IMG/VR virus record: IMGVR_UViG_3300031455_000001
Span: 64,001 to 128,000 of that record
Length of the DNA: 64,000 nucleotides
Direction: 5' to 3' (one strand)
Source: a virus
Shown here: positions 1 through 64,000 of the stretch, piece by piece
Position numbering within the stretch: the stretch's first letter is position 1
How the letters are laid out: every line of letters starts with the position of its first letter
Notes under the pieces: generated by a model
Database searches by the model: none
What the model saw: only the letters and a program-made list of their open reading frames with translations
What the model was told of the DNA's origin: nothing
Translations under genes and position numbers: made by a program

Positions 1-636
1 ATCTCTTAATATTCTACCTTTAATTCCTACTAATTTGCCAAATCGATTCCTCATAGGTATTGTGATTCTTTTGGACTCAAGATCAAATCCAACTCCATAA
101 TATTTTTGAGTTCTATATGAAATACCTTCCATTAGCCAATCGTATGAAGGGTATGGGATAAAGTCGTTCAATACTGTTTCAGGTAATATAGGGTTAGGCT
201 GTATATTCACATCGTTCTTTCTCTTATTTCTTATTCCTAATAACCAATTTAAACTTGAATCTTTTTGATCTTCTTTAAAAGCATCATTAGCTAAATGCTT
301 TAACCCACAAATGTCACTGATAAAATTCTTTGAATTGTTTAGGTTGCTCTTTATTTCCTCTCCACGCTTGTCAAAGTGGACATAACTGATTAAATCAAAT
401 AGATCAGAAGAAGGAAAGTCTGACTGATTTCTAATAGTAGATGATAATGAATCATTCAATTTCACCTGTACTGCCCTTTTGTTTTTACTGTTAAATTTGC
501 CAAATGGCAGTTGGCACGTGATGAGGTTTCCATTCTGTTCATATTTTACATATTCACAATCAATTTCCTCTAATAACTTTTCGATTTTTTCCGTATTATC
601 TAGGAGATGTTTTTTTATGATTTTGAATACATTCAC
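1..636 (-). CDS. dnaG: DNA primase (DnaG-like), N-terminal part, runs off window
   Basis: Not in ORF track; GTG at 636 after AAGGTGG RBS; reads MNVFKIIKKHLL...VGFDLESKRITIPMRNRFGKLVGIKGRILRD; adjacent to DnaB. Confidence 0.85.
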   Translation of the reverse strand, partial: MNVFKIIKKHLLDNTEKIEKLLEEIDCEYVKYEQNGNLITCQLPFGKFNSKNKRAVQVKLNDSLSSTIRNQSDFPSSDLFDLISYVHFDKRGEEIKSNLNNSKNFISDICGLKHLANDAFKEDQKDSSLNWLLGIRNKRKNDVNIQPNPILPETVLNDFIPYPSYDWLMEGISYRTQKYYGVGFDLESKRITIPMRNRFGKLVGIKGRILRD

Positions 637-42712: not shown

Positions 42713-44977
42713 TTAAGATGTCTTTACATTAATCTTTTTATTATCTTCTACTGAATTGAATTTATTAAGCAGTTCATATAAGAAGCTTCTTCTCTCCATA
42801 TTGGCAAATTTCTTAATTGAATCATTAATTGTTTCTGCTTGACCCAATACGATCAGGTATTTCGTTGCACGTGAAACACCTGTGTAAATAAGATTGGCAT
42901 TAAGTTGATACGATGCTGATCTGTCTGTAATTGCAATGACAACTTTATACTGACTGCCCTGACATTTATGAATAGTCATTGCCCAAGAGTGCATGAGAGT
43001 TGTTAGCACTATCTCCCAATCAAGTCTTACGACTATCCCTTCATAATCGATAACCAAACATTTTTCTTCTGTATCAATATCAACGATCTTGCCATTATCT
43101 CCATTAAATAAATCAGCTTCTCCGCCATTTATCGTCTTAACACCATATGTGTTAGAGGTGTTCATAACTAAATCTCCAACTCGATATGTAATTTCGTTTT
43201 CTTTCTTGCCAAACTTTTTCTCTTTTTTTAATGAATTTTCTGGATTAACAATTGATTGAATGGTTTTATTCATCTCAACCGTTCCTAGTTTGCCTTTGTT
43301 CGTAGGAGTTAACAAAACTATATCATCTGAAGAGAATTTTTCTAAAAGCTTTTTATAGTAGTGGATATATCCATCACGTATATAATTTTGATTCACTAGA
43401 TGGAATAGGCAGTCATTTCCAATTCGTTTGCGACCTGTTTCATTATTATTTAGAAATACAACACCGTTACGAATGTCTGTTGCCACATTCAAGATGCCAC
43501 CTTTTTCTTGTCTGAATACTTTTTGTAATTGAGAAATTTTAATTACTCCACTACGGATGGAGTCGTACAGGAAGCTTCCAACACCAACGCTCGGTAATTG
43601 AAAATCATCTCCAACAAATAGAATCTTAGAATTATTGTTCTGAATCGCCTTAAACAACTTATCAAGAATAAAAACATCACACATAGATGATTCATCTACA
43701 ATGATAACGTCTTCATGAATATATTTAACTGCCCCTTCATCGTCATCATAAACACCAATTGCTCTATGGATTGTTTGTGCAGGGTGATTGGCATAATTTG
43801 CAAGAATTTTAGATGCCTTACCTGTTGGCGAAAGTAAAATAGTGGTTAAGCTTTTCTTTTTGATTAATTCAAGCAAAATTCTTATTAACCAAGATTTCCC
43901 CATTCCACCAGATCCTATTAATAATGAGATATTGTTCTCATTCCAATCATGGAAAAACTGTCTTTGTTTTTCTTCTAAGCTAACATTATTCTTTGCACAA
44001 TAATCATCTAGAAAAACATTTATACACTCCGTTTCAAATGTTTTCTTTGACTGCAATTTAAATTGAATCATCTTCATCGCTATTCCTTGCTCCGCAAGAT
44101 AAATATCGTCACGAGTAAACCTACCGTCAAGATTCATAATGCCTTTTGGGTTGCTGTTTAAAACTTCTTTTATATTATCTTTGCTTATAGCCAGCAAAGC
44201 AATACACCTGTTTAAAAGCTGTTTGTCACCCACCCAAGAATGACCATTTTTATTCTCTTCTCTAATGGCATAATGAATGCAACTAGTTATTCTGTGAGGC
44301 GACAACATATCATATCCGACCGCCTTAGCAATGGCGTCCGCTTTGAGAAACCCTATACCTTTAATTTCCGTTAATAAATAAGGATTCTGTTCGATCTTCT
44401 GGATTACTATTTGAGGACTTTTATATTCTTTAATAAGCTTCTTGATCATGTTATATTTTATCCCATATTTAGAAAGAAATATTAAAATCTCACTCATCTC
44501 TAGATTAGACAATACTTTATCTCGAAGTTTTTCAAACGTTTTTTCTCCAAGATTTTTAACTAAGCTATAATCGAACTCTCCCGATTCAATCATTCCTAAG
44601 ATATCTTGACCTTCTTTATATACTTCAAATATATTTTCTATCTGCTTTACAGTTAATATTGATTTCAAGAAGTCTTTTTGTTGTTCTACTGTAACTGGCT
44701 TATCTCTTCTGATTGAATCAACAATGTAACTTCCTTCATATTGAGAATTTTTATCAACAGATAGCTTTACAATCCACTCTTCGTTAAGATCCAACCTAGG
44801 CATACTGCCTTTAATTGATATATTTCCGTATTTATTTAATTTGATTTCAAATTCTGGATTAACCAAATCTTCTTCATTTACACTTGCTCCATATATACCA
44901 TATGCATCTTCGCTGTTGTAGAAAAGCTCTCTTGTCGCACTGACTCTGATTTCCAATTGCATCAACTCCTCTGTCAC
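42713..44977 (-). CDS. recD2: RecD2-like SF1B helicase
   Basis: HhH GIGFLKAD, GSGGMGKS, VDESSM, GDDFQLPSVG, TIHKCQGSQ, YTGVSRA. Confidence 0.9.
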   Translation of the reverse strand: MTEELMQLEIRVSATRELFYNSEDAYGIYGASVNEEDLVNPEFEIKLNKYGNISIKGSMPRLDLNEEWIVKLSVDKNSQYEGSYIVDSIRRDKPVTVEQQKDFLKSILTVKQIENIFEVYKEGQDILGMIESGEFDYSLVKNLGEKTFEKLRDKVLSNLEMSEILIFLSKYGIKYNMIKKLIKEYKSPQIVIQKIEQNPYLLTEIKGIGFLKADAIAKAVGYDMLSPHRITSCIHYAIREENKNGHSWVGDKQLLNRCIALLAISKDNIKEVLNSNPKGIMNLDGRFTRDDIYLAEQGIAMKMIQFKLQSKKTFETECINVFLDDYCAKNNVSLEEKQRQFFHDWNENNISLLIGSGGMGKSWLIRILLELIKKKSLTTILLSPTGKASKILANYANHPAQTIHRAIGVYDDDEGAVKYIHEDVIIVDESSMCDVFILDKLFKAIQNNNSKILFVGDDFQLPSVGVGSFLYDSIRSGVIKISQLQKVFRQEKGGILNVATDIRNGVVFLNNNETGRKRIGNDCLFHLVNQNYIRDGYIHYYKKLLEKFSSDDIVLLTPTNKGKLGTVEMNKTIQSIVNPENSLKKEKKFGKKENEITYRVGDLVMNTSNTYGVKTINGGEADLFNGDNGKIVDIDTEEKCLVIDYEGIVVRLDWEIVLTTLMHSWAMTIHKCQGSQYKVVIAITDRSASYQLNANLIYTGVSRATKYLIVLGQAETINDSIKKFANMERRSFLYELLNKFNSVEDNKKINVKTS

Positions 44978-45055: not shown

Positions 45056-45085
45056 GTCAACAAACAGGTTTTAAACACATATAGT
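45056..45085 (+). promoter_or_regulatory. sigma-E/sigma-K-like (mother-cell sporulation) promoter
   Basis: GTCAAC-16-CATATAGT; no sigma-A consensus seen on + strand here. Confidence 0.5.
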
Positions 45086-45100
45086 AAAACTAAGAACAGT

Positions 45101-45949
45101 TTGAAAGGGGTTTTAAAGATGCTTAAAACTGGAGTTATAGCGGTGGACGATGGTGGTTACTCAACTTGCGTAGTAACTAAGGATAGACAAGAGAAATTCC
45201 CATCAATAAAAGGTTCTTATGGGAATAGAACTTTGATCGATGCTAAAGGAAAGTATGATTACATTGTTGAATATGAAGGTGAAAAGTTTGTAATGGGCAC
45301 TCTTGCGCAGTACGATTGCAAGTTGCCGATACAGATGCATAGTGATTCGAAGCAGAATCTGTTCTTTGATTTATCCGTTCTTGTTGCTATTCATCAATTT
45401 GGCTTTTCAACTAACTATCTAGTAACATCTGTTCCTATCGCAATGCACAGTGAAGAGGAGAAGTTCGGCAGGATAGAAAGACTTGTTGGATCTCATACGA
45501 TCACAGTTAATGGATATAAAAAAACATTCACCATAATGGAGGCAAAAGTAGCGCCAGAAACCGCTGTTGCCTTTTGGATCGATGAACCAAGAGGTAAATC
45601 GCGTTACATTGATTTAGGATCAAGAACTATTGGGTATGCAACGACATTAAATGAAGATGATGTAACAAGATTTATTGACAGTGAATCTGGGACATTTAAA
45701 GGCAAGGGGTTGGAAGCTTTGAACGATGATTATGATCAAAATTCTTTAGCCGATTATATATGTGGTAGACTGCTTTCCATGTGGGGTTCTGGAGATAATG
45801 TATACATTATGGGTGGCGGAGCATTAGATAATGAACTTGTAGATTTCATTAAAGGTTATTTCTATAAAGCTAAAGTGATTGAAAATCCTCAAATGGCAAA
45901 TGCAATAGGTATGTATCTTTTGGGTCGAATCGCTTATGACATCTCTTAA
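45101..45949 (+). CDS. parM: Actin-like partition ATPase (ParM/StbA/Alp family)
   Basis: AVDDGG, APE, IDLGSRT, MGGGA; start probably ATG 45119. Confidence 0.85.
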   Translation: MKGVLKMLKTGVIAVDDGGYSTCVVTKDRQEKFPSIKGSYGNRTLIDAKGKYDYIVEYEGEKFVMGTLAQYDCKLPIQMHSDSKQNLFFDLSVLVAIHQFGFSTNYLVTSVPIAMHSEEEKFGRIERLVGSHTITVNGYKKTFTIMEAKVAPETAVAFWIDEPRGKSRYIDLGSRTIGYATTLNEDDVTRFIDSESGTFKGKGLEALNDDYDQNSLADYICGRLLSMWGSGDNVYIMGGGALDNELVDFIKGYFYKAKVIENPQMANAIGMYLLGRIAYDIS

Positions 45950-46229
45950 GAAAGGAGTAGGGATTATGAGAACAGAAGAAGAGGTTGATAAGTTAATTGA
46001 GGGAATGATCGATAGGACAAAAGGGAGGTACATCACTCAGGCTTGTGCATTCAATAAAACATGCCCTAGACAAATGGACTTACTGAAGAAGGCTTTAATG
46101 TCATCTGCCTCCTTCAGTGGCTTAACTAAAGAGATGTTAGCTGTTCAATTTAGTAGTTCAAGTTCCAATAACAGCATGATTATCCCATCATTTGATAGTG
46201 GAAAGAAAAATATTGGGAATTTTATTTAG
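45936..46229 (+). CDS. Putative ParR-like adaptor
   Basis: Small ORF overlapping the parM stop. Confidence 0.55.
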   Translation: MTSLKKGVGIMRTEEEVDKLIEGMIDRTKGRYITQACAFNKTCPRQMDLLKKALMSSASFSGLTKEMLAVQFSSSSSNNSMIIPSFDSGKKNIGNFI

Positions 46230-46495
46230 TTTTAGACATGTTTTAAACATATTAACAGTATATATAAATTATGAGAAAACTTTAAGAAAGGTTTAAAACA
46301 GTCGGCAAACCCTCAAAAACCAGTGATTCTTCATTAGAAAAGAAGCTAAGATAGCTAAATTTTAAGACAGGAAGTGTTCAAGAGGGTGTTCAAATTATAA
46401 TCTGAACACCCAAATCCCTGTTTTCCCCTTATATATCAACGTTTCTCCACACCTCTATTTTGCCGACTTTATACTTATAAAGGAGTGATAGCTAA

Positions 46496-46981
46496 ATGGC
46501 AAATTCAACTTTACAATTCAAAATTAATGATGGTCAATTGATTTTGCAAAATACAAAATGTATTATCGATGAGGTTAAATCTGCAACTTCATCATCAACA
46601 GCGTATATCTTTGACATACCATCTATAAAGAGGTCTATTAAGCAATCAACCAAAGGCAAGGCGATGTCTGTAGCACCATTTTTAGTTCTAGGTGTCGGTG
46701 CAGGAACAACAGATGGAGTTTTTTGGCAAGTATTTATGCAATATATCTTCCCGTGGCTCACTGACATAGCTAAGGTTTACTGTGCAATTAGAATAGCACA
46801 AGCGTTTTACCAAGAAAAAAGAGGTGGGCGTGATGAAGGAACAGGTTTCTCTGCCTTCGTGACGTATGGTAAATGGCTGTTACTTTTCCACATATTGCCA
46901 TTTGGTGTTGAGTTAATCGATCAGATAGGTGAGAAAATGTGGATTGATTTAAAGAATGACCACATAAATATCAGTCAATAA
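46496..46981 (+). CDS. Membrane protein, VirB2/TrbC pilin-like topology
   Basis: Two hydrophobic helices joined by a charged loop in the C-terminal half. Confidence 0.5.
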   Translation: MANSTLQFKINDGQLILQNTKCIIDEVKSATSSSTAYIFDIPSIKRSIKQSTKGKAMSVAPFLVLGVGAGTTDGVFWQVFMQYIFPWLTDIAKVYCAIRIAQAFYQEKRGGRDEGTGFSAFVTYGKWLLLFHILPFGVELIDQIGEKMWIDLKNDHINISQ

Positions 46982-47019
46982 TTTGAGTTGTCAATCCAAA
47001 AGTAAGGATGTGACATGAT

Positions 47020-47766
47020 ATGAAGGTTAAATTGAATGGAAATGATTTCTATGAAATTTCTGCTCCCTTTGGAGATGTGAGTAATATTCATCCCACAGGT
47101 CATACTGGAGTTGATTTAATTATGGAGGCAGGGACAAAATTATTCAGCCCTGTTGATGGAATTGTAGAGAGAATTGTAGATTATGGTAATGAGAATATAG
47201 GTAGAGGAATAATAATAAAAACAGATAGTGGTGAGAGCGTCATAATGGGTCATCTAAGCGACATTAAGGTCAATATAGGTCAGAGTATTAGTCAAGGTGA
47301 TTTCGTAGCTCTATCAGGCAATACGGGCTTCTCTACAGGAGATCATCTTCACCTTGGATTGAAGGATGAAAACGGAGGGTTCATTGACCCAGATTCACTA
47401 CTAGAAGTAGATCAGGAAATAAAGTTATTTGAGAAATTCTTGGAAAACGGTAAAATAAACCAATATTCCAATGACTCGTTAAAAGATAAAGGTATGTGGG
47501 AGTTTTTTAACGATTGGAGAAAAGAAGGATTTTTTGAAGCTATGTATGACAAACCTTTTTCTGAAGTTTTAAAGGATTTCTTTCTAGATTTGCTTTATGA
47601 AATCTCAATGTTCTTTTTGGCTCATGGTAATTTATTCTTGTTATTCCCAGCTATAGCTATCATGTTTTTAACTTTTCTCATAGGGCGAAATAAATACACT
47701 AAGTGGATTATACCTTTATGGTTCGGATACTTTGTAAGTACGGTTCTTTACAGAATATATGGATAG
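47020..47766 (+). CDS. M23 peptidase with C-terminal membrane anchor
   Basis: HTGVD, GHLS, STGDHLH; two C-terminal TM segments. Confidence 0.85.
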   Translation: MKVKLNGNDFYEISAPFGDVSNIHPTGHTGVDLIMEAGTKLFSPVDGIVERIVDYGNENIGRGIIIKTDSGESVIMGHLSDIKVNIGQSISQGDFVALSGNTGFSTGDHLHLGLKDENGGFIDPDSLLEVDQEIKLFEKFLENGKINQYSNDSLKDKGMWEFFNDWRKEGFFEAMYDKPFSEVLKDFFLDLLYEISMFFLAHGNLFLLFPAIAIMFLTFLIGRNKYTKWIIPLWFGYFVSTVLYRIYG

Positions 47767-47781
47767 GAGTGGGCATTACTA

Positions 47782-47865
47782 TTATTTTTTTATATTGCTC
47801 AATTTCAATACCTTAAAATTATTGAATGTCTTGCCAGTTAAATCATATTTTCTTTTTCTAGTCAT
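47782..47865 (-). pseudogene. N-terminal remnant of an HNH/AP2-type homing endonuclease
   Basis: MTRKRKYDLTGKTFNNFKV*; GGAGG RBS and sigma-A promoter at about 47888-47915. Confidence 0.55.
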
Positions 47866-47950
47866 TCTGCCACCTCCTATGTTTATATTATACTATAATT
47901 TATTGCATTTGTAAAATAAATATGTTAAATACGAAAGGGGATTATGAATT

Positions 47951-48100
47951 ATGGAGATGCTTCTTTTAGCTAAGGTTGGTCTTGTTATTGATGGTGTTGT
48001 AAAGTGCGGTTATCTGTTGGCGGGGAGCTACCTTGTTAGAACAGGTGTGAAATATGTTCAAGATTATAAACTATCTGTAGCCAACGAAAGAGGTGAGTAG
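47951..48100 (+). CDS. Small hydrophobic protein (49 aa)
   Basis: MEMLLLAKVGLVIDGVV...; coupled to the ATPase. Confidence 0.6.
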   Translation: MEMLLLAKVGLVIDGVVKCGYLLAGSYLVRTGVKYVQDYKLSVANERGE

Positions 48101-50909
48101 TATGACAACAACTATTCAACCTCTGCCGCAATATCAGCTTCCTATGGTTATAAAACAACCAAAAAAGAGATCGTTTAAAATCAAGGAGTTTATGGATATG
48201 TATAGAGAGCCAGTTATCACTTTTTGTATTACTCCAAATAACGCACCTGAAGTTCAGCGTGAAAGAGGGTCTAGGCATAAGAGGTATTCTGATTTTGAAG
48301 AAGAGATATTCATGGATAAAACTAAGTCAGACCTCTTACTGAATACGATTAATGGTTTATTCGCAAAGTTCTATGCACCAGAAAGAGTAAGACTCTCTAG
48401 AGATGGTGTAAGAATAAAAATGAACGATGTCGTCAGTTACAAAATTGCCATTAGTAATGGTCAAATGAAGTTTTATTTAACAGTCCCTAAAAAATGGTCT
48501 AAAAGTTTTAAGTCTGCAATAATCAGAGATTGGGGTCAAGTGGATATCACAGAGGTAGAAGAGAAAATTATTGAATTTAATCCTTCAAAAGCAAAAGCAA
48601 TGGAGATCCATTTGCGTCATCATTATGCCTTATCTTTAAAACATGAGAAAAAACAAGAAGATTCGCTCTACTCCTCTTTAGCATCTTTAGCGTCTACTAT
48701 GGGTGATGACGACAAGTTACTAATTGATTATAATATAGAACCAATAAACGGAGTGTGGAAAGGCAAGGCAATGAAAAAGATTAGAGATTTTAAAAATGGC
48801 AAAACACCTGCAAGAGAAGATGCTTTAACAGTAAGTGGAGTTATAGGTAAAGTTTTTGATGTATTTAATGTCATATTTGATGAATTTATTTTGATGATAG
48901 AAGAAATCATGGGATCAAAAGATGAAAAAGCGCTAAAGAAAGATCAATTATTTGACTTGCAATATAGTGACAATAAAGTACATGCAAACTCCAACGGATA
49001 CAAAGTCCAAATCAGAGTATTGGGTGAATCTGAAGATGAGAAAAAAGTAAAATATGCTTTTAGAAATATTGAAAATTCTTTCTCATTACTCAATGGCGAT
49101 AATAAATTTTCAATAACTCACATCAAAACAAAGCGTGGGATTAAATCAATTATCAAAGCAGTAGAAGAAAATAGACCAATACTGAATAGAACTACCGATG
49201 TGTATTTTGAAAAGGAAATGAGCAACATTCTTAAAATACCAAGCAAATCTACTCTCAGAGAGTATGGAAATGTTATTATGCAAGATAATTTTACTCGAAC
49301 AGAAATAGGTGACGATTTCTTTATTGATGAATTTGGTGCAATTCCATTTGGTTACACATTAGAGAAAGAGTCAAGAAGATTGTTATTTGGCGGATATCAA
49401 CGTGAAGATTGGACTCCAAAAGGTAGATGCGTAAAAGACAAGGTTGTTAAGTTAGACGATCGTAGTACAGCTACAATGGTGTTCGGTTCAATGGGGTCGG
49501 GGAAGACATCTTTATCTGAAAATCAAGCACTTTATACTTTTGGTGCGCATATAAAAGATTATGAAGAATGGAAAAAACAAAGTAAGTCAGTAGTTGTTTT
49601 CGATGTTGCCGATGGAAGCATGGTAAACAATATTTACAACCACATTCCAGACCACTTAAAGTCTAGAGTTATACTGTTAAACCATTCTAACTTTAACAAT
49701 CCAATTGGTGTTAATAATGCTGATTTAGCAGAATTTAACACAGATGTTATGAATGATGAAGACTATGCTTATACACTTGCCGAAATGGAAGCTAAATTAG
49801 TGTTAGAGATTCTTAAGTCAGACAAGACTATGGCTATGGACAGATGGTTCACATCTTCTCTTCAAGCCGTACACTCAGTCAACAAGGATTGGGGCTATAT
49901 AGAGGCGATGCGAACGCTTATAGATGACGACTTTAGAGCAACAGAAATCATACCATATTTAGAAAATAAAAGGTTAAAACTGGAGATGAAAACTTACCAT
50001 AAACTAGCCACAAAGGGAGAAGCAAAAACAATTATTCAAACCATAGAAAATAGATTTAGCCAGCTGGAAAGAGATCAAAAACTGTGGGATTGCATAGCCC
50101 AGAAACCATTAAGAGATGAAGATGGCAAAGTTAAATTAAATTTTAGAAAAATGATGGATGGAGATGAAGATGGCGCATATATGATACTCGTTTACATCCC
50201 TAAATCAGGAGTATCTAATTTGTATAGAAAATTCGTATTTTCTCATTATTTCACTAAAGTTTGGAACGTCTTATTGTCAAGAGAAGTAGGATTTGGAGGT
50301 CGAGAATACAGACCAGAAACATTAATCATAATAGATGAAATTCATCAGATAGTCGATATACCAATTGTGGCAAAGCTGTTTGTTGATTTATTTAAAGAGC
50401 CTAGAAAATACTCTGGACGATACTGGTTTACGTTGCACGGCTGGTCATCCCTTGCCAAGGCTGGTCGAGGTTTAGAGGGTGATATAAAACAGTCTATCAT
50501 GGACAATGGTTGCAACTTGATAATGCTCAAAGGTGGAGGAGAGGCTTTTAGCAGTCTGTCCGACTTCCTACAACCAATGACTATAGCAGATTTTAACAAC
50601 CTCATGAACATGGAGTTTTGTGGAATATTCGCTCTCAGATGGGCAAATAAAAATCACGTTTTTCAAGCAAGAATGTTGCCTGATCTAAAGGAAAACAAAG
50701 ACTTTAAAAAATTCAGCAATGCTGATTCTGACTTCCTAACCAAATACTCATCCGAATATGGATTGTCAAAACAAGAAGTTCGTGATGATAACCTTGAGCG
50801 TAGCTATTCTATGATTGAAAATTCTATTGTGAACAGCTTTGCAGAAGATGTGAGTGAGCAAGATTTAAGTCAATTAGAAAGTATCGGAAAAGAGGGCTTC
50901 AAAAAATAG
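48093..50909 (+). CDS. VirD4/TraG/HerA-like DNA-translocating ATPase
   Basis: GSMGSGKT, VVFD, IIIDEIHQ, EPRKY. Confidence 0.8.
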   Translation: MSSMTTTIQPLPQYQLPMVIKQPKKRSFKIKEFMDMYREPVITFCITPNNAPEVQRERGSRHKRYSDFEEEIFMDKTKSDLLLNTINGLFAKFYAPERVRLSRDGVRIKMNDVVSYKIAISNGQMKFYLTVPKKWSKSFKSAIIRDWGQVDITEVEEKIIEFNPSKAKAMEIHLRHHYALSLKHEKKQEDSLYSSLASLASTMGDDDKLLIDYNIEPINGVWKGKAMKKIRDFKNGKTPAREDALTVSGVIGKVFDVFNVIFDEFILMIEEIMGSKDEKALKKDQLFDLQYSDNKVHANSNGYKVQIRVLGESEDEKKVKYAFRNIENSFSLLNGDNKFSITHIKTKRGIKSIIKAVEENRPILNRTTDVYFEKEMSNILKIPSKSTLREYGNVIMQDNFTRTEIGDDFFIDEFGAIPFGYTLEKESRRLLFGGYQREDWTPKGRCVKDKVVKLDDRSTATMVFGSMGSGKTSLSENQALYTFGAHIKDYEEWKKQSKSVVVFDVADGSMVNNIYNHIPDHLKSRVILLNHSNFNNPIGVNNADLAEFNTDVMNDEDYAYTLAEMEAKLVLEILKSDKTMAMDRWFTSSLQAVHSVNKDWGYIEAMRTLIDDDFRATEIIPYLENKRLKLEMKTYHKLATKGEAKTIIQTIENRFSQLERDQKLWDCIAQKPLRDEDGKVKLNFRKMMDGDEDGAYMILVYIPKSGVSNLYRKFVFSHYFTKVWNVLLSREVGFGGREYRPETLIIIDEIHQIVDIPIVAKLFVDLFKEPRKYSGRYWFTLHGWSSLAKAGRGLEGDIKQSIMDNGCNLIMLKGGGEAFSSLSDFLQPMTIADFNNLMNMEFCGIFALRWANKNHVFQARMLPDLKENKDFKKFSNADSDFLTKYSSEYGLSKQEVRDDNLERSYSMIENSIVNSFAEDVSEQDLSQLESIGKEGFKK

Positions 50910-50957
50910 CTTTTTATTCTTTATTATATCATTATATTTTATGATTGTCAAGAAAGG

Positions 50958-51821
50958 ATGCTATATAATATGAAAAAGAGGGCATCTTGGAATGAGAGAG
51001 AACATGTGGATAGGATAACTTTAGATTGGGTAAAGACTAATTGCAGGTTGACAGGGAGAGAGATTAGTCTATTGCAATTAGTCTATGACCGCAAGCTAGT
51101 GAGAAGAGATCATTTGGAAATAATAAGCGAACAATACCGTAACACAGGTGACAACAGAAGCATTTTATTAAATAGGGCAATAAGGAAAATGTATCGTTGC
51201 ATGTGTCTTGATAAGGTTCATGAAAAACAAGAAATAGGAAAAGGGAACAGTCCTTGCATAGTAGCGTTGGACAGGGCGGGTTCACTGCTATTAAATGTTT
51301 CTCATAGGAAGAGAATAGCACAGCGTAAAGTTACTCACAAGGGGAGAACTTATGTTCTTAGAACATTACCTTTGAACTATAAACACATAAATGGAGTCAA
51401 TCAAATTGAGGTAGATACAATATTATCTGGTAATAAAATAGTTCAATGGAGACATGAAATTGGAATAAAATTCTTATATGGTGATGAGGAGATACTTGTG
51501 ATATCAGATGTCTTAATGGAGTTAAAAGTTAAAGAAAAATCATTATTTATTTTCTTAGAGTACGATACTGGATCGGAAGATATGGGGAATCGAAATACTT
51601 TTCCAACAATCCACGATAAATTGATCAAATATAGAAAATACAAGAACTCACAATTATGGAGTGAGAATTATCCTTATTTCCCAATAATCCTGCTTGTTAC
51701 AGAAGATGGCAATCGTATACCCTACTTCAATCAAAAATGTAAAGAATTGGGTTTGCAAGGCTTTGGTGTTTATCACAAAAATTATGTAAATTTCTTAAGG
51801 CACTTAGTGAATATCATTTAA
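50958..51821 (+). CDS. Replication-relaxation (Replic_Relax) family protein
   Basis: N-terminal wHTH (LTGREISLL), FLEYDTGSE, KLIKY. Confidence 0.8.
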   Translation: MLYNMKKRASWNEREHVDRITLDWVKTNCRLTGREISLLQLVYDRKLVRRDHLEIISEQYRNTGDNRSILLNRAIRKMYRCMCLDKVHEKQEIGKGNSPCIVALDRAGSLLLNVSHRKRIAQRKVTHKGRTYVLRTLPLNYKHINGVNQIEVDTILSGNKIVQWRHEIGIKFLYGDEEILVISDVLMELKVKEKSLFIFLEYDTGSEDMGNRNTFPTIHDKLIKYRKYKNSQLWSENYPYFPIILLVTEDGNRIPYFNQKCKELGLQGFGVYHKNYVNFLRHLVNII

Positions 51822-51936: not shown

Positions 51937-52977
51937 TTACATAACCCCTAGCTTTTGCAACAACTTAATCTGCGTTGTTCTATCTACGTTCTTAATTAGC
52001 CCTAAAAGGTCGTCAGTTGACAGTCGATCAAACTCTTCCACGGGTATTTTAGTATTAATATCAACTGTTACAAGCTCCTCTAGATTCTTCTTAGCCATAT
52101 AATCATTCAGAGTAGTAGAGACATTATTGTGATCTCCATGTTGTTGCATGGCTTTAATATCTCCGCCTGTGATAATATTTACTTCGTTGATTGATGCCTT
52201 CTTGATTGAGTGGAAAACAATCTTCCTGTTACCAAAGTCAATGTTATCTCTGATATACTTCATCATCTTAGATATTGTTTTATCCGTCAACTCGAATATA
52301 TTATCGCTATCTTTAGTTCTAGCCTCCTTGTAGCTCATCAAAGCTTTATACAGGTCGTTTGAGATCTTCTTATGTGACCACTTATTACCCTTCCCTAAAA
52401 CCTTCATAAACCACACACCATCGATGTTTATAATCTGATCCCATTTTGCTGTGCGAATAGAATCCTTACGGAAGGCGGTAGCATAAGCAACTCTCACCAA
52501 TAGTGATTTCTCCAAGCCTTTACGAGTGGTTGACACCAGATTAATTATGGCTAATATTTCTTCATGTGTGAGCGTATCATAGCTCTCAACATCATGTTTA
52601 CCATAGCTCTCAACATCGAACCAAGCTCTTCTAACTTTGAATCCATCATCCTCAAACCTTTTGTATAACTCCCTCAGTGATGAAAATGTATTATTTACAG
52701 TCCCACCTTTGTACTGCTCCTTTAACGCAACTTGATACGATCCAATTTGGCTAGGAGTAAATATTAAATCATCTGGGTTTAAATCCTTTAACTCCTTACC
52801 TCTCATTGTTTTAAAAAAATCACGTATTGATCTTTCATATGTTCCTCTTGTGTTCTCACTATTCTGCGCCTTGCGTGAAAGGTAGGTATGAATTGTTGCA
52901 TAAACATTTTCTCCTTCAGTTTTCGGATTCAATTGTCTCACTGCACCTAGTTTAGCCATTACATCAATCCTCCTCAA
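51937..52977 (-). CDS. Tyrosine recombinase
   Basis: TAFR, GKGNK, FHSIKK, GDH, DY catalytic set. Confidence 0.85.
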   Translation of the reverse strand: MRRIDVMAKLGAVRQLNPKTEGENVYATIHTYLSRKAQNSENTRGTYERSIRDFFKTMRGKELKDLNPDDLIFTPSQIGSYQVALKEQYKGGTVNNTFSSLRELYKRFEDDGFKVRRAWFDVESYGKHDVESYDTLTHEEILAIINLVSTTRKGLEKSLLVRVAYATAFRKDSIRTAKWDQIINIDGVWFMKVLGKGNKWSHKKISNDLYKALMSYKEARTKDSDNIFELTDKTISKMMKYIRDNIDFGNRKIVFHSIKKASINEVNIITGGDIKAMQQHGDHNNVSTTLNDYMAKKNLEELVTVDINTKIPVEEFDRLSTDDLLGLIKNVDRTTQIKLLQKLGVM

Positions 52978-53211: not shown

Positions 53212-54078
53212 TCAAATACCCCTCCAAATATATTCGTTAGGACTCATTTGGTGATCAGTATTACCCCCTCTGTTTGCCACCCATCCAGAATGGTTAACGG
53301 ATATATATTTCTTCTTTTTCAACTTTTTCAAATGACAATAAAATGTTCTGTTGCTGATTCCTGTCTCTAACAATATTTTGTATAAAGTTATGGCTCTTAG
53401 ATTGTTTTTGTACCCTTTGCATTTCGACTTGATATAGCAGTACAACATTAGATCAGTGTTGTCGAGGTCATCGCTGAATACAATAGATAAAAATTCATGT
53501 ATGTTAATGCTGTGTGTATTTTCGAAACTGTAAAGAGTTCCATAGTCATTTTCTCCATATGCATCTGTCGTCATGAATAAAGGCTCTTTAACTTCATAGT
53601 TGCGATTCTTGACAAGTGACCTGTATGAATTATAATTTATGTCGTTAGCTGAATCATCAATACAAACAAACTCCAACAATGACACACCATTGATTTTCTC
53701 ATCTTCGCGACTATAAGATCTTACTGGATAATTCTTTATGGTATTAGTGATCTGTAGTTGATCCAGCAGTCCTCCCTTTTTTATAAGTTTATCTACACTC
53801 TTTGTTTTTCTGCTATAACCCAATATTGATTTGATGTCACCATTTTGTACATAGGTATGATTCTCTACGTCAACAAAATGGCAATATTTATACAGGAACG
53901 ACACAGTTAATATATAAGCGTAAGAGAATGCTATTTGCTGAGCATTTACATTATTGTTTTCATCCTTATTCATTCCCGACAATGTTTTGAAGATACTGTT
54001 GGGAATCCTCACATTCGCCTCTCTGCCGTATAGATACTTTAAATTTTCAAAGTGTTCTCTCATTCCATACTCCCCCAT
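53212..54078 (-). CDS. Putative replication initiator / wHTH DNA-binding protein
   Basis: RIPNSIF, C-terminal TGISNRTFYCHLKKL wHTH; abuts the inverted repeat. Confidence 0.55.
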   Translation of the reverse strand: MGEYGMREHFENLKYLYGREANVRIPNSIFKTLSGMNKDENNNVNAQQIAFSYAYILTVSFLYKYCHFVDVENHTYVQNGDIKSILGYSRKTKSVDKLIKKGGLLDQLQITNTIKNYPVRSYSREDEKINGVSLLEFVCIDDSANDINYNSYRSLVKNRNYEVKEPLFMTTDAYGENDYGTLYSFENTHSINIHEFLSIVFSDDLDNTDLMLYCYIKSKCKGYKNNLRAITLYKILLETGISNRTFYCHLKKLKKKKYISVNHSGWVANRGGNTDHQMSPNEYIWRGI

Positions 54079-63561: not shown

Positions 63562-64000
63562 ATGTCTTCTAAGTGGAAAAGTTTTGATGATTTAGAAAAT
63601 ATAAAGGGTACAAATTCAAATAAGAATATAAGTGAAATGCTTCCAGAGTTCGCTGAGATGCTTTCTTATTTTCAAGTTTACCCAGATAGATTTATTGATT
63701 ACATACTCCCAGAGGATAGCACGTTTAAACTATATCCTTTTCAGCGAGTATTTCTAAGAATCATGGCTCGATACAAGAAGATTTATTAGTACATCACCGC
63801 GACACGGGGAACTTCTAAATCTTTCTTGAATATATTATCAATGTATTTGAAATGTATATTCTTCCCTAATATAAAACTGTCGTTAGTTGCTCCACAAAAG
63901 GATCAGGCAAGTCAAATTGCTCAGCAAAATATTGAGCAAATTTGGAACTTTATGCCCCTGTTGCAGAAAGAAATCAAACCAAAAGGAATGACATTTGCAA
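63562..64000 (+). CDS. terL: Terminase large subunit (N-terminal part) interrupted by in-frame TAG at 63787-63789
   Basis: LYPFQRVFL...KKIY*YITATRGTSKSFL...VAPQKDQA; frame stays open to window end. Confidence 0.85.

Follow-up and report, generated by a model that had tools for sequence, protein, structure and literature searches.

A predicted segregation cassette joined to a reduced, conjugation-like operon in a Tsamsa-like Bacillus phage

The DNA considered here, referred to as the window, is a stretch of 64,000 nucleotides (bases 64001-128000) of the 155,345-bp IMG/VR virus record IMGVR_UViG_3300031455_000001, whose CheckV completeness is 94%. Between positions 45,056 and 51,821, its plus strand encodes a ParM-like actin-fold ATPase, a 97-aa putative adaptor, a 161-aa protein, an M23 metallopeptidase, a 49-aa membrane peptide, a 938-aa ATPase, and a Replic_Relax protein (Table 1). 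A first-pass annotation had seen in this run of genes an actin-based partitioning system combined with a reduced conjugation-like set inside a phage, and had placed the module behind a sporulation-type promoter. Gene identities and conserved gene order agree with the former description, and the plus-strand genes it reported are all borne out by Pfam or PHROG matches, save for one 51-aa open reading frame (ORF). Judged from sequence, the 'plasmid-like' or 'DNA-translocation' region of Tsamsa-like phages is a type-II-style segregation cassette followed by a reduced operon derived from a type IV secretion system (T4SS). Taken as a whole, we propose that it may form a transfer or inheritance mechanism by which a processed episomal genome is kept and passed on without virions, a reading about which we are evenly divided.

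Conservation of the gene string

The whole ten-gene string is present, with its order kept and at 45-76% protein identity, in all nine relatives compared by tblastn, namely PJN02, Thrax2, Tsamsa, vB_BcoS-136, a Bacillus amyloliquefaciens 'plasmid', a Halobacillus contig, and three metagenomic contigs. In these genomes a RecD2 gene is followed by the genes for the ParM-like protein (64-76% identical), the 97-aa adaptor, the 161-aa protein, the M23 peptidase, the 49-aa peptide, the 938-aa ATPase, and Replic_Relax, and then by an Xer recombinase gene. The counterpart of the replication-initiator-like protein is labeled 'replication initiator' in PJN02 and Thrax2.

The 938-aa ORF shares 72-74% protein identity with its counterparts in Izhevsk, Tsamsa, Thrax1-5, PJN02, FADO, PBC2, Kirov, and vB_BcoS-136, which are giant Bacillus siphoviruses, and 24% with proteins of SPO1-like myoviruses. 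A megablast search of phage and plasmid collections with the module returned zero nucleotide-level matches. On the strength of this protein-level identity, and given the empty megablast, we assign the source phage to the Tsamsa-like ('Tyrovirus') siphoviruses, a giant, temperate group, as a new and fairly distant member. Viral contigs queried for related loci with the ParM-like protein yielded none; loci of relatives for the ATPase were retrieved with a closer, 10-sequence alignment.

The identity of the source as a phage follows from the IMG/VR record and from this similarity, rather than from a terminase. The first-pass annotation had described the phage as terminase-encoding, a claim we could not confirm: Terminase_6N has no match in the record, and the ORF at 63562 matches an unnamed PHROG only. 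At this edge of the window (63562-63999) the putative terminase start is broken, with a 75-aa ORF stopping at 63789 and a new frame running from 63826.

Table 1. Features of the module and its flanks (positions in the window; E-values follow family names)
Feature	Position	Strand	Evidence and remarks
RecD2-like helicase, divergent left neighbor	42713..44977	-	Pfam AAA_30 6.8e-29, HHH_RecD2, SH3_13, UvrD_C_2; phrog_4412 4.6e-251; kept in relatives
Near-consensus sigma-A promoter of the RecD2-like gene	45021->44993	-	TTGACG-17-TATAAT with TG; promoter scan
Promoter-like/operator-like element, 5' of parM	45056..45086	+	GTCAAC-16-CATATAGTA; holds conserved block TTTTAAACA(C)ATAT
17-nt element, first copy	45064-45080	+	Overlaps the promoter-like site upstream of parM
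ParM-like actin-fold segregation ATPase	45119..45949 (ORF opens with TTG at 45101)	+	ALP_N 3.1e-12; phrog_691 'partition protein' 8.6e-43
97-aa ORF, putative centromere-binding adaptor (ParR/ParG-like)	45936..46229	+	phrog_32184 7.3e-34; start overlaps parM stop
17-nt element ACAtGTTTTAAACAtAT, second copy	46236..46252	+	Direct repeat D4, 88% identical; directly 3' of the adaptor gene
28-bp palindrome GGGTGTTCA...TGAACACCC	46384..46411		I9 inverted repeat, arms 93% complementary; lies ~85 nt before the 161-aa gene
Conserved box TTGC(C/A)GACTTTAT..ATAAAGGAG	46460..46485	+	Includes a short inverted repeat covering the 161-aa gene's ribosome-binding site (RBS); 8/9 upstream regions
161-aa protein, VirB2/TrbC-like candidate	46496..46981	+	phrog_30989 1.1e-47
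M23 (LytM-type) metallopeptidase	47020..47766	+	Peptidase_M23 8.4e-20; phrog_33207 1.2e-98
49-aa conserved membrane peptide	47951..48100	+	phrog_31209 5.3e-20; stop overlaps ATPase start
938-aa VirB4-like ATPase, FtsK-HerA superfamily	48093..50909	+	phrog_5156 2.8e-210; Walker A G465-K471, Walker B D748-E749
Antisense unit (candidate)	50713..50951	-	Perfect sigma-A promoter TTGACA-17-TATAAT with TG, 50951->50923; terminator-like hairpin 50725->50713
Replic_Relax, MOBC-type relaxase-like nuclease (winged helix-turn-helix [wHTH] + PD-(D/E)xK-like core)	50958..51821	+	PF13814 1.4e-12; phrog_9381 4e-68
Xer-type tyrosine recombinase, right neighbor	51937..52977	-	Phage_integrase 3.7e-11; phrog_1; perfect sigma-A promoter 53026->52998
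Replication-initiator-like protein	53212..54078	-	phrog_19047 1.4e-73; perfect sigma-A promoter 54127->54099

Insertions and additional genes were seen at some of these loci. In PJN02 (L001:755-4194) the RecD2-like gene is interrupted by an inserted pair encoding an endonuclease and a 'mobile intron protein', and in vB_BcoS-136 the module contains NUMOD4 homing-endonuclease genes behind parM and behind the ATPase gene. A close metagenomic relative (L008:11635-13062) carries, beyond the recombinase, a second and different actin-like gene (375 aa, ALP_N and MreB-like_C) with a 98-aa partner, and its phage therefore has two filament systems. The 51-aa hydrophobic ORF (47759..47914, plus strand) has no PHROG match; because a tblastn homolog is absent from all relatives, it is probably not a gene.

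The VirB4-like ATPase

The largest protein of the module had been described as a VirD4/TraG-like ATPase, in a window where no VirB4 was visible. A search of 1.84 billion protein representatives at E<=0.001 gives 180 clusters, which makes its family a small one; members are carried by phages, prophages, and plasmids whose hosts are spore-forming Bacillota. Family models do not recognize it: Pfam has no match at E<=0.01, and for the identical P0001 none up to E<=1, NCBIfam has none either, and CagE_TrbE_VirB and AAA_10 are unmatched, as are T4SS-DNA_transf, TraG-D_C, and TrwB_AAD_bind; the VirD4-type PF02534 has no match in the record. A sequence-based profile search of the PDB was marginal, with DptH at 1e-4, HerA at 0.14, VirB4 at 0.6, and TrwB at 3.

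According to an AlphaFold2 model built from 40 homologs (mean pLDDT 81.7), the N-terminal part forms a soluble alpha/beta domain, and the P-loop domain at the C-terminus contains an all-alpha insert. In Foldseek, ranks 1-13 are taken by TrwK/VirB4 chains of the R388 T4SS, matched over their full length at E 2e-14. Superposition with VIA-align gave a Z score of 24.4 (rmsd 3.3, 350 aa) for the C-terminal domain of VirB4 from Thermoanaerobacter pseudethanolicus (4ag5), 22.8 for TrwB, with which only the nucleotide-binding domain is shared, 21.8 for DndH-C, and 20.8 for HerA; with full-length TrwK about 570 residues align at Z 17.7. Residues 1-240 contain no hydrophobic segment, and the lone weak peak, at 244-262, lies within a low-confidence helix. 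The Walker A residues G465, G468, G470, and K471 and the Walker B residues D748 and E749 are invariant among homologs.

By its predicted fold, then, the protein falls within the VirB4/VirD4/HerA branch and has the architecture of VirB4. We use the VirB4 label because of the two-domain architecture free of transmembrane (TM) segments, common to TrwK and 4ag5, and because of the full-length matches, the Z gaps among the ATPase-domain matches being small. The VirD4/TraG assignment thus gives way to one in which the 938-aa ATPase is itself VirB4-like. Unlike the VirB4 of a T4SS, the phage protein is only 10-14% identical to these proteins and stands without detectable VirB6, VirB8, and VirD4 partners.

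Relaxase-like protein, M23 peptidase, and small membrane-type proteins

The Replic_Relax protein scores 48.5 bits against PF13814 (cut-off 25.3), a family equated with the MobC superfamily in CONJscan (PMC5357655), and phage members were linked to CloDF13 MobC via HHpred by Pathria et al. (PMC3357382). An I(P/S)D ... ExDxGxE ... K signature is invariant in nine homologs, that of the lytic phage CampHawk included. We place the protein in the MOBC relaxase superfamily on these grounds. With CloDF13 MobC and pAD1 TraX it has in common the Replic_Relax family, an N-terminal wHTH-like part, and conserved acidic and lysine core residues; unlike these relaxases, it adjoins a VirB4-like rather than a VirD4-type ATPase, and its nicking activity and oriT are predicted only. 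The signature fits the PD-(D/E)xK-type core reportedly described for MOBC relaxases such as TraX by Francia and colleagues in 2013.

The M23 protein has an N-terminal catalytic domain in which both metal-site motifs, HTGVD at 28-32 (HxxxD) and HLH at 109-111 (HxH), are intact, followed by a strong C-terminal hydrophobic segment at 195-224 with a Kyte-Doolittle (KD) value of 2.26. Together with the Pfam match, this segment bears out the earlier description of a membrane-anchored M23 peptidase, which would be the wall-cutting (VirB1-like) component of the set. PJN02-type relatives have a shorter M23 protein of 120 aa.

The 161-aa protein, previously called a two-TM pilin-like protein, belongs to a family of 75 homologs, every one of them unnamed. 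Its N-terminal part is variable in the alignment, and its C-terminal helical hairpin, with an EKRGGRDxGTG loop, is conserved. The AlphaFold2 model (pLDDT 68) places the helices at 75-108 and 117-154, and they are moderately hydrophobic (KD maxima 1.0-1.36). The nearest neighbors in the language-model Atlas, TrbC/VirB2, T4SS_pilin, DUF4134, and DUF6112 at 0.81-0.82, lie below the trust level and serve as a lead only. Foldseek found no significant match to the fold in the PDB, and hhalign found no relation to the small proteins encoded ahead of the ATPase in pCLJ and CampHawk. The hydrophobicity being only moderate, two TM segments are plausible, and the likeness to pilins is a lead. The 49-aa peptide has a KD value of 1.62 over residues 4-23 and a strong RBS that is kept in relatives; its gene lies directly upstream of the ATPase gene, as virB3 does relative to virB4 in T4SSs.

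Partition cassette and noncoding elements

With ALP_N the ParM-like ATPase scores 47.3 bits (cut-off 26.3), and with the NCBIfam ParM equivalog 16 bits, far below the cut-off of 417. Its likely start is the ATG at 45119, preceded by GAAAGGGG. The 97-aa ORF, whose position and size suit an adaptor gene, has no Pfam match, and its nearest named Atlas clusters, the ribbon-helix-helix (RHH) families MetJ and TacA at 0.84, are again below the trust level and a lead only; its ortholog is termed ParG-like/RHH in two earlier papers (PMC9703825, PMC7685451). As in ParMRC type II partition systems (R1, Bacillus Alp families), a gene for an actin-fold ATPase is followed by a small gene, here that of the putative adaptor, with stop and start overlapping. 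Two copies of a 17-nt element flank the two genes, and one relative (L007) also has a second copy at the matching place after its adaptor gene. In contrast to the iterated centromere array of ParMRC systems, only these two copies are present, no longer array of iterated centromere repeats being found.

The 28-bp palindrome, which separates the partition cassette from the T4SS-like operon, is kept in all nine Tsamsa-like relatives. Its arms covary: 83.5% of alignment cells are paired, compared with 36-52% when the arms are slid, compensatory changes occur in 6 of 13 pairs, and none of 500 shuffles reaches the score. We consider the palindrome a candidate oriT, nic-region, or operator site. It was also considered as an intrinsic terminator, which is ruled out as no T-run follows it. 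A second small inverted repeat, of the CCCTTATATATCAAGGG type, lies 3' of the palindrome at 46426-46441.

In the source phage, the 48 bp that separate the ATPase gene from the relaxase gene further contain a consensus promoter. It faces back into the 3' part of the ATPase gene, with a terminator-like hairpin about 200 nt downstream. Three-frame translation of this unit revealed no ORF, and it may yield an antisense RNA. The promoter is not present in the four relatives checked.

The parM upstream site and sporulation

Which sigma factor would read the module? The 155-kb record contains 22 perfect TTGACA-16..18-TATAAT promoters, compared with 0.4 expected by chance, and three genes neighboring the module have sigma-A promoters that match at 11-12 of 12 positions. 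A Sigma70_r2 search of the record was empty, and the lone Sigma70_r4 match is a GIY-YIG homing endonuclease. Given the 22 perfect sites and the lack of a recognizable phage sigma factor, early transcription seems to depend on host sigma-A at consensus-strength promoters. Because parM is without such a promoter, and because a phage sigma factor is not recognizable, the parM unit appears to be controlled differently from the sigma-A early genes of the phage.

The first-pass annotation had gone further and assigned the site upstream of parM to sigma-E or sigma-K rather than sigma-A. The string it pointed to, GTCAAC-16-CATATAGT, is present exactly at 45056-45085 and fits AC-16-CATAnnnTA at all eight positions (the sigma-E and sigma-K consensus strings being those of B. 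subtilis promoters); AC-16-CATATAGTA ends 32 nt before the ATG at 45119. This underlies an alternative to the reading proposed above, in which a mother-cell sigma-E/sigma-K operon would move the phage genome across the septum or the engulfing membranes into the forespore. Of 1500 stretches of 118 nt drawn at random from the record, only three reach a match of 8/8, and against a sigma-E-type consensus the relatives score 11-13/15, with a CATAT -10 core in all of them. Set against this, AC-16/17-CATAnnnTA occurs six times in the window where 5.8 occurrences are expected, the relatives score at background (6-7/8) for sigma-K, so that the match is perfect in the source phage only, and sigma-E-type scores of at least 13 and at least 12 are found in about 3% and about 23% of random stretches, respectively. 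The same site can be read as a sigma-A promoter, TCAACA-17-TATAGT, with 9/12 matches.

The conservation at this site may also have a different cause. All nine relatives keep TTTyAAA(C)ATAT with the CATAT core, preceded 15-16 nt upstream by a GT(C/A)-type box (GTCAyy, GTATCA, or GAATTA), and the motif upstream of parM is unique within the 155-kb record. Since the 17-nt core recurs after the adaptor gene, the block may be an operator for the adaptor or a centromere site, and not a -10 box.

Beyond the Tsamsa-like group, only background scores for a parM-type sigma promoter were obtained at homologous modules of CampHawk/SPO1-like phages, the Clostridium plasmid pCLJ, Thermoactinomycetaceae, and metagenomic phages; by eye, only an unconvincing likeness to the SPO1 middle/late promoter consensus was seen ahead of the CampHawk genes. 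The record contains 16 Spo0A boxes, no enrichment over the roughly 18 that we estimate from its base composition. Capturing an episome in the forespore should call for action before or during septation, earlier than sigma-E and sigma-K act, which also speaks against a mother-cell operon. The SpoIIIA-SpoIIQ channel likewise combines an M23-fold protein with a secretion-type ATPase, a resemblance of idea only: the phage M23 protein is of the active type, keeping both catalytic motifs, has its anchor at the C-terminus, and scores 20.5 bits against the SpoIIQ model NF053738 (cut-off 250), the phage ATPase is VirB4-like, and SpoIIIA-like ring-building proteins were not seen.

Two further observations favor a link to spores. 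All hosts on record for the ATPase family are endospore-formers, in 65/65 phage records, 23/23 plasmids, and 10/10 genome loci, although sampling is strongly Bacillus-biased and ancestry is shared. In addition, SPO1, which bears a version of the module, was found trapped in spores ('virospores'), and its ParM gene 27.9 was suggested as a possible aid (PMC12991052, 2026). On balance, control of the parM unit by sigma-E or sigma-K is possible and weakly supported: the site does differ from the 22 perfect sigma-A promoters, but its match occurs at chance frequency and competes with a 9/12 sigma-A reading. The mother-cell mechanism built on it we hold to be very improbable.

Distribution among phages, plasmids, and hosts

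Among complete B. amyloliquefaciens and B. subtilis genomes, PJN02-like phage genomes are listed as circular 'plasmids' of 161.9 kb and 165.6 kb. These entries support an episomal state, as do the adjoining Xer recombinase and Rep-like genes. They also fit a second alternative, that the module serves maintenance and replication only, as the partition kit of a plasmid-prophage replicon whose DNA stays inside the cell. The ParM-like protein and the adaptor would then segregate the episome, Replic_Relax would nick to start or resolve replication, and the ATPase would act as a membrane-tethered translocase or helicase-like helper. The published 'plasmid prophage lifecycle' of the group (PMC9703825, PMC7685451), the PHROG name of the relaxase family ('replication initiation by nicking'), the adjoining genes for a RecD2 helicase, an Xer recombinase, and a Rep initiator, and the incomplete T4SS set all speak for it.

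The wider distribution of the genes is harder to accommodate in this way. The ATPase-relaxase-actin set also occurs in elements without a need for maintenance, namely lytic SPO1-like phages (CampHawk and SPO1 retain the ParM-like protein, the ATPase, and Replic_Relax), 0305phi8-36, and an integrated prophage. The last of these was found in Bacillus sp. FJAT-22090 (L015:1232-5425, on a 438-kb contig), where the operon lies beside host yfkB and a gene for a 511-aa serine recombinase, which is why we regard it as part of an integrated prophage, and where ParM is replaced by a different, non-orthologous actin-like gene in opposite orientation. From FJAT-22090, SPO1, and 0305phi8-36 it follows that the pairing of a filament with the VirB4/MOBC proteins survives non-orthologous replacement and is not bound to a plasmid state.

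Conversely, the ATPase-relaxase pair is found with two to four small ORFs on 18.7-kb and 32-kb Thermoactinomyces/Laceyella plasmids without virion genes, and multiple copies of it occur in the chromosomes of Laceyella and Shimazuella; large Clostridium plasmids have the ATPase with one small membrane protein. Beside the pair, the small Thermoactinomycetaceae plasmids have a DnaD-type Rep and ParA of their own, which argues against a maintenance role, as do the wall hydrolase and the conserved membrane peptides, which are ill-suited to a purely cytoplasmic job. Because the pair stands alone on virion-less plasmids, a self-contained function in DNA handling or transfer fits it. We consider maintenance alone rather unlikely, if a serious contender, and continue with virion-free inheritance or transfer as the preferred reading.

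On the two small plasmids, Thermoactinomyces pTvu19 (L025, 18.7 kb) and the Laceyella plasmid (L026, 32 kb), the ATPase gene, with or without Replic_Relax, lies behind a GntR/NUDIX pair. Both also carry ParA and an ERF recombinase, and the 32-kb plasmid adds an XhlA/amidase lysis cassette. They may represent a minimal mobile element built round the module.

Discussion

The module is not new to the literature. The papers on Izhevsk (PMC7685451) and the Tyrovirus group (PMC9703825) describe the region gp11-gp19 as plasmid-like and as a sign of a plasmid-prophage stage, label its ATPase as a type IV secretion or TrwB-like protein, and discuss neither the palindrome nor sporulation; the authors of the latter consider the region probably acquired from a conjugative plasmid. 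Gene order is the same there (Thrax1-5, Tsamsa, Izhevsk, Kirov, PJN02, and vB_BcoS-136), the ATPase being called a 'T4SS protein'; in contrast to the described region, the source phage has the sigma-K-perfect string, the second 17-nt copy, and the antisense consensus promoter.

In 2012, Pathria et al. described a 'DNA translocation operon' in lytic 0305phi8-36, with a partial version in SPO1 (genes 27.3, 27.4, and 27.9), and proposed cell-to-cell passage of DNA in biofilms, without mention of sporulation (PMC3357382); transfer to a neighboring cell, which the first-pass annotation offered as one destination, had thus already been put forward. These operons likewise place a MOBC/CloDF13-MobC-like relaxase beside a TM-less coupling-type ATPase, an actin-like gene, and membrane proteins, and the CampHawk ATPase and relaxase are 24% and 27% identical to those of the source phage. 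Unlike the Tsamsa-like phages, 0305phi8-36 and SPO1 are lytic and have no neighboring Xer recombinase or Rep gene, the SPO1-like version is without an M23 gene, and a VirB6-like ORF was reported in 0305phi8-36 for which the source record holds no match. What our analysis adds to the published module is the palindrome, the operator-like repeat, the antisense promoter, the restriction to endospore-forming hosts in the records surveyed, and the ATPase-relaxase pair on virion-less plasmids.

How might such a set of proteins act together? We propose the following model. The adaptor would tether the non-integrated phage genome to the ParM-like filament, which would position it in the cell. The relaxase would bind and nick the conserved palindrome upstream of the operon. 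Seated on the small membrane proteins, next to a place where the wall has been opened, the VirB4-like ATPase would drive the processed DNA up to an envelope or septal barrier, or across it. In this way the episomal genome could be kept and passed, free of virions, to a daughter, sister, or neighboring cell, possibly to a forespore. Consistent with the model, parts of the T4SS type are present (a VirB4-like ATPase, a wall hydrolase, a relaxase, and small membrane proteins), the catalytic motifs of the ATPase, the relaxase, and the M23 peptidase are intact, and a covarying palindrome stands before the operon. Of the earlier idea of a transfer machine, the segregation cassette and the reduced conjugation-like set hold up, but the mother-cell sigma-E/sigma-K part has weak support.

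Several points weigh against the model. Searches of the 155-kb record found no homolog of VirD4, VirB6 (TrbL), VirB8, TcpC, AAA_10, or FtsK elsewhere, divergent analogs being possible. A complete T4SS at another place on the replicon, which the first-pass annotation had named as a finding that would speak against its interpretation, was thus not seen. Because VirD4, VirB6, VirB8, and TcpC were not found, the set is incomplete by the usual rules for Gram-positive T4SSs. VirB4 proteins are not known to act as DNA pumps themselves. Membrane insertion of the 161-aa protein is plausible and not more than that, and the M23 domain is without a signal peptide and has its anchor at the C-terminus, an arrangement that offers no evident route to the wall. 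MOB-suite classes the plasmid forms as non-mobilizable, and deletion of the operon left laboratory growth of 0305phi8-36 unaffected (PMC3357382).

This dispensability, together with the origin from a conjugative plasmid favored by the Tyrovirus authors (PMC9703825), could instead indicate a slowly decaying relic of a captured plasmid, or an accessory role in conflict, such as excluding superinfecting phages or conjugative elements. HerA-type defense ATPases are among the closest folds to the ATPase (Z 18-21), and the antisense consensus promoter in the source phage suggests tight repression. Decay is difficult to reconcile with gene order and catalytic motifs that are kept across phages diverged to 21-27% protein identity, and no defense partner domain (Sir2, DUF4297-type nuclease) is present, no PADLOC run having been made. 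Of the readings weighed here, we give this one the smallest chance. We return to virion-free inheritance or transfer as the interpretation that we prefer.

We speculate that, in large phages of endospore-formers, an interchangeable filament (ParM-like, MreB-like, or TubZ) hands the genome to a minimal VirB4-like/MOBC machine that crosses septa, the sporulation septum included, with a sporulation sigma switch in the source phage. This generalization is improbable as it stands; if true, the same kit would explain both the episomal lysogeny of Tsamsa-like phages and the formation of 'virospores' by lytic SPO1-like phages. The window adds one more member to a known system, and no new kind of system, along with testable details: the operator-like repeat, the antisense promoter, and a palindrome that may be an oriT. 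Among the modules of large Bacillus phages that lack an explanation, the gene string is one of the most conserved, and it persists in lytic, integrated, and plasmid-like phages as well as in small plasmids, so far in endospore-forming hosts only. If the module moves phage DNA without virions or into spores, it would be the smallest known conjugation-type apparatus, and our view of how phages persist and spread in soil bacilli would change.

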